From Escherichia coli (lineage in GTDB: Bacteria; Pseudomonadota; Gammaproteobacteria; Enterobacterales; Enterobacteriaceae), in the NCBI RefSeq assembly GCF_024700885.2, contig NZ_CP117016.1: DNA of 64,000 nucleotides; one strand, 5' to 3'. A model generated the notes under the pieces. The model searched no databases, was not told the origin of the DNA, and saw only the letters and a list, made by a program, of their open reading frames with translations. How positions within the stretch are numbered: position 1 is the stretch's first letter; each line of letters starts with the position of its first letter. The translations under genes were made by a program, and so were the position numbers. This document shows, one piece after another, positions 4,692-34,614 of this stretch.

Positions 4692-5569
4692 GCAATGATA
4701 TCGCAATCACATCACAACCAGGCGCAACTGTAGGTACTGCTGCGGCAATCTTCAGCCCGGAGGGCATGAATCAACTGGTGCGTTTCGCGGAGTTGATGTC
4801 ACAAAGCAAAGCGACTGTACCGAAACATCTTGAAGGCAAACCTGCCGATTGTCTGGCGGTGACCATGCAGGCGGCACAGTGGGGAATGAACCCTTTCGCC
4901 GTGGCGCAGAAAACGCATGTGGTAAACGGAACGTTAGGCTACGAAGCACAGTTGGTAAACGCGGTCGTATCCTCTTCCAGCCTGCTAGCGACACGCCTGA
5001 ATTATCGCTGGAGCGGTGACTGGTCGAATGTTAACGGCAAAACAGATAAATCACCGAATCTGACGGTAACTGTGTCAGCAGTTCTTAAAGGAGAAGCAGA
5101 ACCCCGTGAGCTTACCATCAGTATGGCGCAAGCCGGAGTGCGTAACTCTCCATTGTGGGAACAGGATCCGCGCCAGCAGCTTGCCTATCTTTGCACGAAA
5201 CGATGGGCTCGCCTGCACGCTCCTGATGTACTTCTCGGTGTTTACACCCCTGACGAATTACAGGAAACGGCACCGCGCGTTGAGCGAGACATTACTCCGC
5301 AAACGACTACTGCTGCGGGAATGAACAGTCTGATCAACGCTAAACCAGTGAAAAAGCCTGATGAGCAAACGCGTAAAGCGGATAGCCGTGATCCAGAAGA
5401 AATGCTGATGGCCTTTACCAGCGCAGCGATGAATTACAGCACTGTCTCCGAACTGGATAAGGCTTACAAATACATTGCACAAAAACTTTCAGATGATGAC
5501 GAACTGCTGGCAAAAGCCACCGACGTTTACAGCGTTCGTCGGGAAGAATTAAACGAAACATCTATGTAA
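4688..5569 (+). CDS. Putative single-strand annealing recombination protein (RecT/Bet-like); family assignment tentative
   Basis: 293 aa ORF start-stop overlapping the exonuclease gene (ATGA), the typical exo/SSAP arrangement. Confidence 0.4.
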   Translation: MSNDIAITSQPGATVGTAAAIFSPEGMNQLVRFAELMSQSKATVPKHLEGKPADCLAVTMQAAQWGMNPFAVAQKTHVVNGTLGYEAQLVNAVVSSSSLLATRLNYRWSGDWSNVNGKTDKSPNLTVTVSAVLKGEAEPRELTISMAQAGVRNSPLWEQDPRQQLAYLCTKRWARLHAPDVLLGVYTPDELQETAPRVERDITPQTTTAAGMNSLINAKPVKKPDEQTRKADSRDPEEMLMAFTSAAMNYSTVSELDKAYKYIAQKLSDDDELLAKATDVYSVRREELNETSM

Positions 5570-7113: not shown

Positions 7114-8364
7114 TTATTCCCCCGCCATCCACTTCTCAAACTTCGACGGGGAGAACGGAATCAGATCCGTATGCTCCCCGTTAATCCAGGAATCAATCAT
7201 ATCGGCCCACTGCTGCAACATGTAGGCGCGCTGTCTGGCGTATTCCGCTTTGTTATATACGGCGCGCACACCTTTCTGCTCATGTGCCAGAGCCTTTTCA
7301 ATCCAGTCTGAAGGATAACCAGCCTCATGCAACAACGTACTGGCTGTACGGCGCATATCGTGTACGGTGAAGTCCTGAATATGCTCACCATCTTCATTTA
7401 TTATTTTCACCGTTCTGTCGATCAGAGAGTTCAGCGCGGCATTAGATAATGGCTTCCGGAAATTGTAACGACCAGGAACCAGATATTCACTTCCACCAGC
7501 GCACATCTGCAACCCGACCAATATATCCTGAACCTGTTTAGGCAGGTAAATAACATGCGCCCGGCTTCCCTTCATGCGGTCTGAAGGAATTGTCCATGTC
7601 CATTTTTTAAAATCTATTTCATCCCACGTTGCATTGGTGAATTCGCCCTTACGAACCATAGTGATAAGCACCAGTTTTAAAGCCATTTTCATAGTGCCCA
7701 TAGCACCAATGGCATCCAACGTGCGGAAGAACAGGCCAATTTCTTCTGGTGTCAGTGTTCGCTCTCGTGGTTTAAATATGGCGATAGACGAAGGTTTAAT
7801 GTCAGCCGCAGGATTAAACAAACCATGACCACGGTCATTGGCGTGACGGTATACGCTGCTGATGATCTCCCTGGCCTGTACTGCTGTTGCCCGACCACCG
7901 CGTTCGACAATCCGGTCACACAAATCACGAACCATCGATGTGGTAATTTCAGCCATCATTTTGTTGCCAAGAACCGGAAGTATGTCACGGTCGATCACCG
8001 CCTGCTTCATTGCGCGGGTACTGTCAGCCAGGATGACGTGTTTCATATAACTGTCGGTATGTACCGCAAACGTCTCGGCACCACGAATTTTTTTGATACC
8101 GTCACGTTTAGCCGCAGCCGGCGACTGGCCTGCTTTAAGCAGCTTCTTTGCAGCAATCAGTTCTTCTCGCGCTTCTGCCAGGCTGATACCGTCACGCCCA
8201 TACTGCCCGATTACCAGTGTTTCGCGGCGACCGTTGATACGGTAGTCATAGCGAAACGAGACCGTGCCTGACGTAAGCACAGCTACATACAGCCCGTCAC
8301 GATCGGAGACCTTGTACAGTTTGTCCTGCGGCTTGAGGTTTTTTAATTTTGTATCGGTAAGCAC
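7114..8364 (-). CDS. int: Tyrosine site-specific integrase (P4-type)
   Basis: 416 aa; N-terminal MLTDTKLKNLKP typical of P4-like integrases; R..H..R..Y catalytic region near C-terminus (HDMRRTASTLL, AHEQKGVRAVYNKAEY). Confidence 0.9.
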   Translation of the reverse strand: MLTDTKLKNLKPQDKLYKVSDRDGLYVAVLTSGTVSFRYDYRINGRRETLVIGQYGRDGISLAEAREELIAAKKLLKAGQSPAAAKRDGIKKIRGAETFAVHTDSYMKHVILADSTRAMKQAVIDRDILPVLGNKMMAEITTSMVRDLCDRIVERGGRATAVQAREIISSVYRHANDRGHGLFNPAADIKPSSIAIFKPRERTLTPEEIGLFFRTLDAIGAMGTMKMALKLVLITMVRKGEFTNATWDEIDFKKWTWTIPSDRMKGSRAHVIYLPKQVQDILVGLQMCAGGSEYLVPGRYNFRKPLSNAALNSLIDRTVKIINEDGEHIQDFTVHDMRRTASTLLHEAGYPSDWIEKALAHEQKGVRAVYNKAEYARQRAYMLQQWADMIDSWINGEHTDLIPFSPSKFEKWMAGE

Positions 8365-30089: not shown

Positions 30090-30935
30090 ATGTCCACGAC
30101 ATGGTTTGTAGGAGCCGACTGGCTCGCCGAACATATTGATGACCCGGAAATTCAGATTATCGATGCCCGCATGGCGTCGCCTGGACAGGAAGATCGTAAC
30201 GTTGCTCAGGAGTATCTGAATGGACATATTCCCGGCGCAGTGTTTTTTGATATAGAAGCGCTTTCTGATCACACTTCCCCGCTTCCGCACATGCTGCCGC
30301 GCCCGGAAACGTTCGCCGTGGCGATGCGTGAATTAGGCGTTAACCAGGACAAGCACCTGATTGTCTATGACGAAGGTAATCTTTTCTCAGCCCCACGAGC
30401 ATGGTGGATGCTGCGCACCTTTGGTGTAGAGAAAGTGTCGATTCTGGGTGGTGGACTTGCAGGCTGGCAGCGCGATGATCTGCTGTTAGAAGAAGGTGCA
30501 GTAGAGCTGCCGGAAGGAGAGTTTAACGCCACGTTTAATCCTGAAGCCGTGGTGAAAGTCACCGATGTGTTATTGGCAAGCCATGAAAATACGGCGCAAA
30601 TTATTGATGCCCGCCCGGCTGCACGTTTTAACGCAGAAGTTGATGAACCTCGCCCAGGTTTACGTCGCGGACATATTCCCGGTGCATTGAACGTTCCGTG
30701 GACGGAACTGGTGCGCGAAGGCGAACTAAAAACGACCGATGAACTGGATGCTATATTTTTTGGTCGCGGCGTCAGCTATGACAAACCGATTATCGTCAGC
30801 TGCGGCTCTGGTGTAACGGCAGCCGTGGTTTTGTTGGCACTCGCGACGCTGGATGTGCCAAACGTGAAAATGTACGACGGCGCATGGAGTGAATGGGGCG
30901 CACGGGCAGATTTACCGGTTGAGCCAGTGAAATAA
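30090..30935 (+). CDS. sseA: 3-mercaptopyruvate sulfurtransferase
   Basis: Start set to MSTTWFVGADWL (track ORF begins 53 codons upstream); tandem rhodanese domains. Confidence 0.93.
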   Translation: MSTTWFVGADWLAEHIDDPEIQIIDARMASPGQEDRNVAQEYLNGHIPGAVFFDIEALSDHTSPLPHMLPRPETFAVAMRELGVNQDKHLIVYDEGNLFSAPRAWWMLRTFGVEKVSILGGGLAGWQRDDLLLEEGAVELPEGEFNATFNPEAVVKVTDVLLASHENTAQIIDARPAARFNAEVDEPRPGLRRGHIPGALNVPWTELVREGELKTTDELDAIFFGRGVSYDKPIIVSCGSGVTAAVVLLALATLDVPNVKMYDGAWSEWGARADLPVEPVK

Positions 30936-30951
30936 GCTTTTTACAGGCAAT

Positions 30952-30982
30952 AAAAAACCGCCGAATTTGGCGGTTTTTTATT
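30952..30982 (+). terminator. Intrinsic terminator after sseA
   Basis: AAAAAACCGCC-gaattt-GGCGGTTTTTTATT. Confidence 0.6.
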
Positions 30983-30985
30983 GTG

Positions 30986-31690
30986 CACAGAAAACCCCCA
31001 GCTAGGCTGGGGGTTCCGGAAAGCTTTCAGCTTTGAGCCAGTTATTAAAACCCCTTTTGATTTGTTAAAACACCTTGCGGTCTGGCAACTGCAAGTGTCA
31101 AACAAGAAATCAAAAGGGGGTCCCAATGGGGGACGAAAAGAGCTTAGCGTACACCCGCTGGAACTGTAAATATCACATAGTTTTTGCGCCGAAATACCGA
31201 AGACTGGCGTTTTACGGAGAGAAGCGTAGGGCGATAGGCAGTATTTTGAGAAAGCTGTGTGAGTGGAAAAGCGTACGGATTCTGGAAGCAGAGTGCTGCG
31301 CAGATCATATCCATATGCTTGTGGAAATCCCACCCAAAATGAGCGTATCCGGCGTTATGGGATATCTGAAAGGGAAAAGCAGTCTGATGCTTTACGAGCA
31401 GTTTGGGGATTTGAAATTCAAATACAGAAACAGGGAGTTCTGGTGCCGAGGGTACTATGTCGATACGGTGGGTAAGAACACGGCGAAGATACAGGACTAC
31501 ATAAAGCACCAGCTTGAAGAGGATAAAATGGGGGAGCAGTTATCGATTCCATATCCGGGCAGCCCGTTTACGGGCCGTAAGTAACGAAGTTGAATGCAAA
31601 TGTCAGATCGTATGCGCCTGTTAGGGCGCGGCTGGTAACAGAGCCTTACAGGCGCATTTGAAAAACCTCCGGCTATGCCGGAGGATATTT
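30986..31690 (+). mobile_element. IS200-like insertion sequence (IS200/IS605 family); ends approximate
   Basis: Y1 transposase gene plus upstream hairpins: CCCCCAGCTAGGCTGGGGG (left-end terminator-like) and CCCCTTTTGATTT...AAATCAAAAGGGG pairing that would sequester the tnpA SD. Confidence 0.6.
31126..31584 (+). CDS. tnpA: IS200 transposase TnpA (HUH/Y1)
   Basis: 152 aa from MGDEKSLAYTRWNCKYHIVFAPKYRR; HUH motif (HIHML) and catalytic Tyr region (GYYVDTVG). Confidence 0.9.
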   Translation: MGDEKSLAYTRWNCKYHIVFAPKYRRLAFYGEKRRAIGSILRKLCEWKSVRILEAECCADHIHMLVEIPPKMSVSGVMGYLKGKSSLMLYEQFGDLKFKYRNREFWCRGYYVDTVGKNTAKIQDYIKHQLEEDKMGEQLSIPYPGSPFTGRK

Positions 31691-31692
31691 AT

Positions 31693-31960
31693 TTGCTGGT
31701 CTGGTTCGCGGCCTTTCCAGCAGGTTGTATTACTGCAAGTGTATCTCGTCTACTCAATACTCGCTTTATGCATCAACGATGTCAAGTAGATAAAAAAGGA
31801 TAGATTTTGAATTCATTTGGCTTATCAGTCCGAATTCAGACAAATATAAACAAATCCCGCTTAATATTAAAATATACTAACTGGTAAAAGATATTACTTA
31901 AACGTGTAATTTCACTTTCTTTAAACAACAAAAAACCGCCAAAATCAGGCGGTTTTTTGT
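31693..31960 (+). ncRNA. Candidate sRNA-like element, copy 1 (RyfA-family position between sseA and sseB)
   Basis: Starts with conserved block TTGCTGGTCTGGTTCGCGGCCTTTCCAGCAGGTT shared with copy 2; ends at intrinsic terminator 31931-31960; no convincing ORF. Confidence 0.3.
31931..31960 (+). terminator. Intrinsic terminator
   Basis: AAAAACCGCC-aaaatca-GGCGGTTTTTTG. Confidence 0.55.
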
Positions 31961-32408
31961 TGCTGGTTTGGTTCGCGGCCTTTCCAGCAGGTTCACTTGT
32001 GTTGCATGAACAACGCAGGTGCCTCACAGCAAAAGAATACTCGCTGTTAAGAAATTTTGTGTCAAGTAAAAAACGAGTAATTATTTTTCGGTTAGCGTAT
32101 TATCGACACCGGCCCTTTCCGCCGTCTCGCAAACGGGCGCTGGCTTTAGGAAAGGATGTTCCTTGGCCGTAAATGCAAGTGTATCTCGTCGCTTGCTATC
32201 GCGGCAATATCGCCAGTGGTGATGTCGTGATGCGGTCTTCGCATGGACCGCACAATGAAGATACGGTGCTTTTGTATCGTACTTATTGTTTCTGGTGCGC
32301 TGTTAACCGAGGTAAATAATAACCGGAGTCTCTCCGGCAACAATTTATTGGTGGTTAACAACCTTCAGAACAGCAGGTAAACCCGAATGCCGCCCTTTGG
32401 GGCGGCAT
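31961..32408 (+). ncRNA. Candidate sRNA-like element, copy 2
   Basis: Repeat of the conserved 5' block plus shared AATACTCGCT and TGCAAGTGTATCTCGTC segments; ends at hairpin 32387-32408. Confidence 0.25.
32387..32408. terminator. Hairpin between copy-2 element and sseB 3' end (possible bidirectional terminator)
   Basis: ATGCCGCCC-tttg-GGGCGGCAT with T-rich flank. Confidence 0.45.
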
Positions 32409-32411
32409 ATT

Positions 32412-33188
32412 TTAGATTATCCGGTTCTGTTTAAAGTCACGCAAAAAACCACCCCAGCGACGTTCATAGAATGGCACAATATGTTCGGTAATAAAGTGGC
32501 TAATTCCTTTTTCCCCTTTTTTCACCTGACAAATATCGATGGGTTCATCGCCAGGTAATGTATCGGTCGCTACACTTCCCGCCGCCTGAATAATTTCTTC
32601 GATATCACCATCGGCTTCAATGCCAATAAGTAAATTAGGCTGTGCCTCTTCGTTCTCTTTAATTGAACAAATAAAAGCACGCTTCACCGGCTTAATAGTT
32701 TTAAATAAGGTGGTGAGTGAATCAATCATTTGTGCTGGTGGCTCTGCGACTTCCGATAATATCAGCGATTCACCGCCCTCCAGTACTTCCTGGCTGCTCA
32801 GCGGATTTCCTTCTTCACCAATCAACAAACTGATTTCACGCGGCATAAATTCTTTACCGGTTGGCAGTTTGGCATTAAGGAAGAGCGTTTCGCCAAGGGT
32901 CATCTCAAACAATGTGCGAACGGGCATTACGACAAATGCCTGTTCGTCTTCAACCGCCTGTTGAAGTGCTTCTAACGAGGTGAAAAAAGGAATGACGCTG
33001 GTGCCGTCTTCTTTTTCCCAGTGCTGTAAATCAAGCGCGCTATCTTCAACCACAGCCTCGCCCTGCGCCGCCGTACCAGGCACCCAGACGATGGATTCCA
33101 GTAGAGTACGGAAAAAGGCCGGGCGGTGCGCCGGTTCGGTTGCTGCTTTTTCCAGCAGGTCTTCAAGTTCATTTTTTGTTTCGGACAT
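32412..33188 (-). CDS. sseB: Protein SseB
   Basis: Start set to MSETKNELEDLL (track ORF 3 codons longer). Confidence 0.9.
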   Translation of the reverse strand: MSETKNELEDLLEKAATEPAHRPAFFRTLLESIVWVPGTAAQGEAVVEDSALDLQHWEKEDGTSVIPFFTSLEALQQAVEDEQAFVVMPVRTLFEMTLGETLFLNAKLPTGKEFMPREISLLIGEEGNPLSSQEVLEGGESLILSEVAEPPAQMIDSLTTLFKTIKPVKRAFICSIKENEEAQPNLLIGIEADGDIEEIIQAAGSVATDTLPGDEPIDICQVKKGEKGISHFITEHIVPFYERRWGGFLRDFKQNRII

Positions 33189-33224
33189 AAGAACCACAAT
33201 TCATTCAACGTTCGGGGCACAAGT

Positions 33225-33324
33225 GCCTGATGCGCCATACTTATCAGGCCTACAAGGGATTCACAATTTGTTGAATTTGCAATACTTTGTAGGCCGGATA
33301 TGGCGTTTACGCCGCATCCGGCAT
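33225..33324. repeat. REP/BIME palindromic repeat cluster
   Basis: GCCTGATGCG...TTATCAGGCCTACA and TGTAGGCCGGATA...GCGTTTACGCCGCATCCGGCA units. Confidence 0.6.
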
Positions 33325-33330
33325 ATTAGT

Positions 33331-34614
33331 TTACGCCGTTAACAGATTAGCAATCGTGCGCACACCAAGTCCCGTAGCACCCGCAGACCACTGTTCAACC
33401 GGCGCTTTACGGTAAGTCGCCGAGCAGTCGATATGCAGCCAGCCTTGCTGATAGTTCTCAACAAAGTGCGACAGGAAGCCCGCCGCCGTGCTCGCGCCTG
33501 CCGGGTACGCCGCGCTTCCGGTATTGTTCAGTTCGGCAAAGTTAGACGGCAGCTGGCTGCGGTGGAACTCCGCCAGCGGCAGACGCCAGAACGGTTCATT
33601 CTCCTGCGCGGCACTCGCCAGCAAGCGACCGGCAAGCGCATCGTCAAAACTGAACAGCGCGTGATAATCATTACCCAGCGCAGTTTTCGCCGCCCCGGTG
33701 AGGGTCGCCGCATCAATGATCAGTTCCGGTTTCTGCGCACTGGCATCAATCAGGCCATCGGCCAGCACCAGACGCCCTTCCGCATCAGTGTTCATCACTT
33801 CAACTTTTTTACCGTTGCGATAGGTAATAATATCGCCCAGTTTGAACGCGTTGCCGCTGATCAGGTTATCCGCACAGCAGAGGAACAGCTTCACGCGCTT
33901 GTTCAGTCCGCGCGTAATGGCAAACGCCAGCGCCCCGGTAACCGTTGCCGCGCCGCCCATGTCCGACTTCATCGAGTCCATAAATGCGGTCTGTTTGATA
34001 CTGTAGCCGCCGGAATCAAAGGTGATGCCTTTACCAACCAGGCACGCGTACACTGGCGCTTCTTTATCGCCAGTCGGGTTGTAATCCAGCGCCAGCAATA
34101 CCGGAGAACGTTCTGAACCGCGCCCGACCGTGTGCAGCCCCATATAACCTTGCTCACGCAGATCTTCGCCTTTGGTGATCCGATAAGTCACACGATCGCC
34201 CGCGACGTTGCTGATCAGATCAACAGCACGCTGTGCCAGTTGCGATGGCCCCAGCTCTTCCGCCGGTGCGTTAATGGTGTCACGCACCCAGTCGATGATC
34301 ATCAGGCGGTTATCCAGTTCCTGGCGCTGGGCATCGTCCAGATCCGGCCACTCCACTTTACGTGTGCCTTTCGGGGCTTTGTAACCTTGCCAGAATGCCC
34401 AGCAGCGATCCGCATCCCAGTCTTCACCGCTTAACTGAACATGCTTGATGCCCAGACCGTCAATCTTGCGCGCCGCACGCTGGATCAGCCCCAGATCGTC
34501 TGTCCCGTTCAAATGCAGGGTAATGCCATCATTATTAATGCTGTAAGTCGCTTTTTCTCCCCAGCGCGCGTCGGCAGGTTGGGTAGAGAGGGTAATCTTC
34601 ATCGCTTCTGTCAT
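33331..34614 (-). CDS. pepB: Peptidase B (M17 aminopeptidase)
   Basis: Start set to [22 protein letters not shown] (427 aa); NTDAEGRL motif. Confidence 0.95.

Follow-up and report, generated by a model that had tools for sequence, protein, structure and literature searches.

Two timR antitoxin genes and one timP toxin gene at the sseA-sseB locus of Escherichia coli, with a distal antitoxin predicted to match the toxin and to end in an IS200 hairpin

The closest described relatives of the locus considered here are the TimP/TimR system of Salmonella Typhimurium (Andresen et al. 2020, PMC7667032; PMC11228461; PMC13000454) and the RyfB1-RyfA1/RyfB2-RyfA2 pairs of Shigella dysenteriae (Fris et al. 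2017, PMC5333039). In Salmonella, RyfA is the timP mRNA, and the small RNA (sRNA) TimR has its gene upstream, divergent and on the other strand, and its 5′ end pairs with the 5′ untranslated region (5′UTR) of timP and blocks translation (PMC7667032); the binding site is stem-loop 2 of the 5′UTR (PMC11228461). In S. dysenteriae, the same unit is tandemly duplicated with RyfB divergent from RyfA, and a short variable stretch of RyfA, overlapping the site of pairing, confers specificity (PMC5333039). The zorO-orzO, tisB-istR and shoB-ohsC systems are likewise divergent pairs with a short complementarity to the toxin 5′UTR and with duplicated copies that have copy-specific antitoxins (PMC7667032, PMC5333039), although their sequences are unrelated to timPR. 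Here, we analyzed a 64,000-nucleotide (nt) stretch of an E. coli genome (hereafter the window; assembly GCF_024700885.2, contig NZ_CP117016.1) and, at a probability of roughly 85%, interpret the region between sseA and sseB as a timPR (ryfA/ryfB) type I toxin-antitoxin locus with two antitoxin genes and one toxin gene, in which the distal timR-1 is cognate, the adjacent timR-2 is an orphan, and an insertion sequence, IS200, has exchanged the terminator of timR-1. All components belong to known families, and the TimP/TimR system itself is established, so that no new kind of element is involved. In the searchable literature, we found no second E. coli timR, no orphan TimR, no link between IS128 RNA and TimR, and no nonadjacent cognate antitoxin beside a mismatched adjacent one; the apparent commonness in E. 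coli of two timR genes of differing specificity, the predicted distal match and the likely origin of IS128 as a gutted timP paralog were equally absent there.

An initial annotation, made from the sequence alone, had described two tandem units between sseA and sseB that open with a near-identical 34-nt block, and had taken the block as the beginning of a gene for an sRNA or peptide on the plus strand. The repeat itself is well founded: the copies at 31693-31726 and 31960-31993 (plus-strand coordinates) agree at 33 of 34 nt and lie 267 nt apart, there is no third copy in the 64 kb, and 100 dinucleotide shuffles yielded no match. The proposed strand is not, as the block is TimR (RyfB) sequence: on the minus strand, it encodes the conserved 3′ body of this antisense RNA, the antitoxin of timP/ryfA type I loci. 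The published template oligos EHO-1419 and EHO-1420 allow Salmonella TimR to be reconstructed, and the 3′ half of this RNA (...GCCTGCTGGAAAGGCCGCGAAACCGGACCAGCAC, then the terminator) is the reverse complement of the block. The Salmonella timR promoter, as given by deletion oligo EHO-1349, consists of TTGACA, 17 nt, GAGTAT and 5 nt to the transcription start (+1), and on the minus strand both units follow the same plan, with TTGACA-17-GAGTAT leading into ~30-40 variable nt, then the block, then a terminator. The additional segments that the two units were said to share are indeed present at equal spacing from the block (AATACTCGC at ~31756 and 32036; TGTCAAGTA at 31780 and 32060); read on the minus strand, they are the -10 (GAGTAT) and -35 (TTGACA) elements of two promoters. 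RNAalifold folds the block into a conserved hairpin flanked by a small 5′ hairpin and the terminator. A covariance model (R1) trained on Salmonella, Citrobacter, Yersinia, Rahnella, Pantoea and Superficieibacter, with Escherichia excluded, gave two strong matches over the 64 kb, both on the minus strand, at 32030-31929 (77.7 bits, E 6e-17) and 31750-31661 (44.3 bits, E 7e-9); the remaining matches scored no higher than 26 bits and were confined to the terminator part of the model. By alignment and covariance model alike, then, both copies are homologous to Salmonella TimR. In the other genera, a single TimR core is found, encoded opposite to timP and in most cases ~240-260 nt upstream of its stem-loop 3.

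The two putative sRNA genes would each be transcribed on the minus strand from their own TTGACA-17-GAGTAT promoter, and we infer that both TimR RNAs are made. The distal gene, timR-1 (31661-31751; seed class A), has its promoter at 31757-31785 (-35 TTGACA at 31785-31780, 17-nt spacer, -10 GAGTAT at 31762-31757, predicted +1 at ~31751) and comprises a seed at 31750-31734, the block hairpin at 31726-31693, and a 3′ end probably contributed by the IS200 right-end hairpin (31684-31666) and UUUUU. The adjacent gene, timR-2 (31929-32031; seed class B), lies directly upstream of timP and divergent from it, with a promoter at 32037-32065 (-35 TTGACA at 32065-32060, 17-nt spacer, -10 GAGTAT at 32042-32037). 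Its promoter hexamers and block are intact, and it keeps its native terminator, a bidirectional one at 31926-31962 with a 15-bp perfect inverted repeat that ends timR-2 on the minus strand; at 75% identity to 30952-30983, this terminator is a diverged copy of the one that follows sseA.

On homology grounds, the toxin gene of the timPR system sits within unit 2. Rfam ryfA (RF00126) matches the plus strand at 32109-32413 over its full length (313.3 bits, threshold 80), and the timP mRNA (RyfA) is placed at 32111-32413, with a -10 TATTAT at 32098-32103, a +1 at 32111 by analogy with Salmonella (oligos EHO-1224/1421), and a terminator at 32387-32408 that marks the end of ryfA/timP. The 5′UTR contains stem-loop 2, the TimR-binding site, at 32175-32196, and the coding sequence at 32255-32380, annotated as timP in RefSeq, encodes a 41-residue protein that matches the NCBIfam model toxic_TimP (NF040796) at 84.2 bits (cut-off 45). 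Toxicity of TimP on overexpression and its Sec-dependent localization to the inner membrane have been demonstrated in Salmonella only (PMC7667032); overexpression of RyfA slows growth of E. coli (PMC4606813). The ryfA position given in the initial annotation is thus borne out by the Rfam match and the flanking genes. The Rfam search that it proposed returned ryfA (313 bits) and IS128 (165 bits), whereas the TimR family it also named does not exist in Rfam; the conserved block makes timR genes easy to annotate.

The two antitoxin candidates differ sharply in how they fit the resident toxin mRNA. Nucleotides 2-18 of TimR-1 form 17 of 17 Watson-Crick pairs with timP nt 64-80 (32174-32190), that is, with the 5′ arm and loop of stem-loop 2, and the duplex of the TimR-1 seed with stem-loop 2 has a predicted energy of -31.0 kcal/mol, a value that none of 500 shuffled seeds equaled (-10.5 +/- 2.5). 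The longest helix that TimR-2 can form there is 6-7 bp, and its seed duplex of -17.0 kcal/mol was equaled by 63 of 500 shuffles (-13.8 +/- 2.9). The TimR-2 seed instead pairs over 19 bp with the class-B timP allele of K-12. Complementarity to stem-loop 2 is therefore found for timR-1 and not for timR-2, which would make timR-2 a TimR homolog yet not the cognate antitoxin, and an orphan in this genome. These comparisons use seed-only duplexes, longest-helix counts and shuffle controls; folding whole TimR against the whole 5′UTR gave long, loop-rich structures with nearly equal energies for all pairs. The mismatches of the TimR-2 seed should matter because, in S. dysenteriae, a 5-nt variable region suffices for RyfB1 to lower RyfA1 and not RyfA2 (PMC5333039). 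TimR-1 would thus repress timP, with its 5′ end pairing to stem-loop 2 over 17 bp and blocking translation as in Salmonella. Relative to Salmonella, the locus shares its position, a homologous toxin and mRNA, and a homologous sRNA with the same promoter hexamers, block, terminator and geometry of pairing between the 5′ seed and stem-loop 2. It differs in that Salmonella has one timR adjoining one timP, whereas the window has two, the matching one lying beyond a relic spacer and 360 nt more distant, and in that the terminator of timR-1 has been replaced by an IS200 end.

Two further contacts between TimR and timP were considered. The invariant GGAAAGGCC of the block (31706-31714) is complementary to the timP 5′ end GGCC(C)UUUCC (32111-32120), and AAGGCCGCG can pair with the 5′ arm of stem-loop 3 (32231-32239) over 9 bp that include G-U pairs. 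Both were rejected as second contacts, the former for lack of clean covariation across genera and the latter for being no better than several chance helices.

The IS200 copy occupies 30984-31695 on the plus strand (712 bp, with a 3-nt TTG ambiguity at the junction), its boundaries being defined by empty-site genomes of the same lineage. It has a Y1 transposase, left-end hairpins, a length of ~0.7 kb and a polymorphic presence, as expected of the IS200/IS605 family: tnpA lies at 31126-31584 (RefSeq annotation; NCBIfam transpos_IS200, NF033573, 140.8 bits), and the left-end hairpins at 30993-31116 match Rfam STnc490 (146 bits). In the 38-genome lineage that carries this allele, IS200 is found in 30 genomes at 30984-31695, between ...CCAGCAA and the sseA terminator, and is absent from the other eight. 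The empty site, ...GGCGGTTTTTTATTGCTGGTCTGG..., is seen in five of these, LR-28 among them, with the locus spanning 839 bp rather than the 1551 bp of the IS200-bearing form; the empty-site alleles L003 and L052 read ...CCAGCAATAAAAAACCGCCAAATTCGGCGGTTTTTT on the minus strand. At the empty site, timR-1 ends in the sseA terminator, a bidirectional inverted repeat at 30948-30983. In three of the 38 genomes (MSB1_4I, SCU-172 and OZ547117), an IS1A lies within the timR-1 -35 TTGACA, flanked by a 9-bp duplication, AACGATGTC (MSB1_4I is L053, ~275-1045).

IS200 thus sits exactly between the timR-1 body and its terminator, so that the native terminator is displaced by 712 bp. The right end of the element, which holds a hairpin at 31666-31684, reads CCUCCGGCAUAGCCGGAGG UUUUUC on the minus strand and was flagged by the terminator scan as a terminator-like site on that strand. 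In the predicted fold, this end forms an 8-bp hairpin that leaves the timR-1 seed and block hairpin undisturbed, and the predicted chimeric TimR-1 is ~91 nt long, equal to the predicted native RNA of 91 nt. Most likely, then, the IS200 right-end hairpin and U-run now terminate TimR-1, and the case may serve as an example of an insertion sequence exchanging the terminator of a regulatory RNA. Other E. coli IS200 copies align 7-13 nt past the left junction as set by the empty site (window 30971-30983; a T-run and ATTG), which suggests that IS200 prefers to land just after terminator-like T-tracts. A different element, the IS3-like ISEcB1, lies directly upstream of the timR array, at the usual place of sseA, in HKUOPY1 (L042 1-467) and 06-00048 (L051 1-632), and the sseA-timR boundary seems to attract insertion sequences.

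Several points weigh against assigning the antitoxin role to timR-1. Adjacency of the antitoxin is the usual rule, but here the adjacent copy is the mismatched one. An insertion sequence lies in or at timR-1 in 33 of the 38 lineage genomes, with the -35 disrupted in three, and such a load could mean that timR-1 is dispensable. The terminator derived from IS200 has just five U residues, and transcription starts were placed solely by analogy with Salmonella. Deletion of timR in Salmonella caused no growth defect (PMC7667032), which may point to weak selection for a cognate TimR. Some of these points would be accommodated if timR-2 were the working antitoxin, acting through imperfect pairing or through the conserved block, with timR-1 a leftover: adjacency is the rule in single-unit loci, timR-2 has the higher model score and a native terminator, and it is timR-1 that the insertion sequences have hit. 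We consider this improbable in view of the pairing energies of timR-2, which resemble those of shuffled seeds while timR-1 pairs 17/17, and of the similarly small difference that abolishes cross-regulation in S. dysenteriae (PMC5333039); moreover, the distal-cognate wiring recurs in 1,073 genomes of the K-12 type (see below).

The two units are not equivalent: unit 2 carries a full ryfA/timP, and unit 1 carries only a stretch matching the sRNA family IS128 (RF00125), which was predicted in K-12 between sseA and sseB. In the window, IS128 matches at 31794-31972 with 165.5 bits, above threshold, but not at full length, as 30 of the 33 positions of its 5′ segment are missing; the spacer proper (31794-31925, plus strand) would be the relic left between the units after deletion of an upstream timP copy. 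In K-12 BW25113 (L002 1712-1760), IS128 is full length and starts with the timP-type -10 TATTAT and 21 nt of timP, followed by TTCGGTAATAAA from sseB, so the -10, the +1 and the timP stub fall within the segment that the window lacks. Strain 2018-05-2CC (L043 100-1300) has an intact tandem, a class-D timR-timP followed by a class-B timR-timP, the units being separated by ~100 nt from the 3′ end of sseB, and the IS128 sequence and the terminator copy come after this sseB fragment. The K-12 stub and this intact tandem together indicate that IS128 is the remnant of an upstream unit after deletion of its toxin gene; the family would therefore represent not an sRNA gene of its own but a chimeric relic, and tandems of the 2018-05-2CC type are the likely ancestor of IS128-type arrays. 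The K-12 form would be the transcript of a gutted timP paralog that retains promoter and stub, whereas the window allele has undergone a larger deletion that also removed both, and the scan found no promoter-like site on the plus strand of its IS128 stretch. Of the IS128 body, only the first bases (TTCGGTAATAAA...GGCTTATT, in K-12 and 2018-05-2CC) trace to the sseB 3′ end; the rest has no significant similarity to timP, sseA, sseB or other retrieved sequence. In K-12, the 3′ end of IS128 overlaps the terminator as well as the initial 13 nt of the antisense of the next timR.

The 2018-05-2CC tandem is an E. coli counterpart of the ryfA1/ryfA2 arrangement of S. dysenteriae. There, both toxin mRNAs are kept beside their own RyfB, whereas in the window the upstream toxin is lost and the surviving one pairs with the antitoxin of the other unit. 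An ancestral tandem duplication would have been followed by loss of the upstream toxin gene, leaving the IS128 relic between two timR genes, and IS200 would have entered between the timR-1 body and its terminator at a later step, its right-end hairpin then taking over to yield the ~91-nt RNA. The same history raises the question of whether timR-2 still has a role. It may be, though we would put the odds somewhat below even, that timR-2 and IS128 are both inert relics of the old duplication and that timR-1 and timP form the only working pair. The window IS128 does lack a promoter, and orphan timR genes are common enough (394 genomes with class-A timR versus 38 with class-A timP, as detailed below) to fit passive retention after toxin loss. 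An inert timR-2 sits less easily with the intact state of its promoter hexamers, block and terminator, and TimR of avian pathogenic E. coli (APEC) has regulatory effects without RyfA, suggesting targets beyond timP (PMC13188913).

To place the arrangement within the species, the locus was read in 20 E. coli strains besides the window. Seeds and stem-loops 2 fall into four classes, A to D, within which cognate helices are 12-20 bp long and between which noncognate helices do not exceed 11 bp. Single units are always cognate, being C/C in EC32, N56, AR_0118 and ETEC-2264, D/D in O157 EC4115 and two others, and B/B in CS5L. Arrays with an orphan timR ahead of a cognate unit comprise orphan A followed by C/C (755, MZ1211 and N3), orphan A followed by B/B (Rb-50), and orphan B followed by C/C (CH4793). 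Crossed arrays have either a distal B, a proximal C and timP-B (K-12 and HKUOPY1) or a distal A, a proximal B and timP-A (the window and LR-28), and the intact D/D-B/B tandem is that of 2018-05-2CC. In the sampled loci (18 other strains and the window), a promoter-bearing timP is always accompanied by at least one cognate timR, although the -35 of the cognate timR in MSB1_4I is disrupted by IS1.

Counts over 5,426 complete E. coli genomes extend this picture. The IS128 spacer, a marker of two-timR arrays, occurs in 1,711, K-12 included. Class-A timR is present in 394 and class-A timP stem-loop 2 in 38; for class B, the figures are 2,032 and 1,975, so that antitoxins are at least as numerous as toxins in each class counted (A and B). 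The timR-2 variant of the window is found in 38 genomes, presumably the same 38 as those with timP-A. The K-12-type junction, in which a class-C timR adjoins a class-B timP, is found at 99% identity or more in 1,073 genomes. Wiring to a distal cognate antitoxin therefore appears to be common and not peculiar to the window. One crossover between a two-unit and a one-unit allele, placed within the first ~60 nt of timP, which are conserved, could have produced it; such an event would be tolerated only where the orphan upstream TimR happens to match. More tentatively, and with less than an even chance of being right, the E. coli timPR locus may be viewed as a polymorphic lock-and-key array, in which at least four classes are shuffled by recombination in the first ~60 nt of timP and orphan TimRs license matching toxin alleles that are not adjacent to them. 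If so, the working antitoxin would be nonadjacent in about one-fifth of complete genomes (K-12 type, 1,073; window type, 38), and that of the present lineage would in addition rely on an IS200 end for termination. That two timR genes of different specificity occur in many E. coli, K-12 among them, matters for the design and reading of timR deletion experiments; recent work in APEC and in uropathogenic E. coli takes TimR as one gene adjoining ryfA. The IS128 sRNA family would be explained as what is left after a timP paralog was deleted.

In four genomes from three genera, a timR seed is fused to a timP stem-loop 2 with deletion of both promoters: O103 ML775 (L005 389-470), 06-00048 (L051), Citrobacter amalonaticus (L019 ~8073-8190) and Yersinia aleksiciae (L034 ~5279-5400). 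Such fusions are expected because seed and target form 17-20 nt direct repeats that are able to recombine, and they are a recurrent route for silencing of the timPR locus. In O103 ML775 (L005 376-498, minus strand), RefSeq annotates a 40-residue hypothetical protein over the fused timR-timP remnant; this call is probably spurious, lying on noncoding RNA sequence.

The initial annotation had also pointed out a 42-codon frame with a lipobox-like Cys, opening at the ATG at 31675 (31675-31803, plus strand), as a candidate for a toxicity test. On a reading of this kind, the region would hold two plus-strand sRNA-like units, the first of them encoding a lipoprotein-like toxic peptide of 42 residues. 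The frame is open, the single difference between the block copies is synonymous within it (GTC/GTT), and an in-frame TTG at 31693 is preceded, at a distance of 8 nt, by a GGAGG; the synonymous change concerns one site and carries no weight. Yet the loop of the right-end hairpin of IS200 (31666-31684) supplies the ATG, and the GGAGG is one arm of the same hairpin, so both are transposon DNA locked in a structure and missing from the empty-site alleles, in which only the TTG is left. Across alleles and genera, product length varies from 11 to more than 100 residues, and neither start nor stop is conserved: the frame is 11 residues long in K-12 unit 1, lacks a start in several Yersinia and exceeds 100 residues in other cases, and a 1-nt indel within the block shifts it in Salmonella. 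Its n-region, MPEDIY, is acidic, and the Cys is replaced by Ser in unit 2; start, frame and lipobox are not conserved. The peptide matches no NCBIfam family, RefSeq has no coding sequence at the frame, and the promoter scan found no plus-strand promoter for it, while a complete conserved sRNA gene occupies the opposite strand. The frame was accordingly rejected as a toxin gene and judged spurious, its start being derived from IS200 and its reading frame unconserved, and the plus-strand peptide account is in our view very improbable; the toxin open reading frame is that of timP at 32255-32380. What holds of the earlier proposal is the broader idea of a type I toxin/antisense-RNA locus reshaped by duplication and insertion of a mobile element, with the strand, the RNA and the open reading frame assigned wrongly.

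The surrounding gene order is yfhM, sseA (ending at 30935), the bidirectional terminator at 30948-30983, IS200, the repeat region, sseB (32412-33197, minus strand) and pepB, and the 1,551 bases that span the locus are 100% identical to those of E. coli strain 1190. A hairpin and T-run closes each unit, as had been proposed, at 31926-31962 (bidirectional) and at 32387-32408 (the ryfA/timP terminator). The Rfam families on the plus strand here are ryfA, IS128 and STnc490, at the positions given above. Between sseB and pepB, at 33232-33345, lie REP-like palindromes with sub-threshold Rfam matches to naRNA4 (37.8 bits, threshold 59.5) and ES036.

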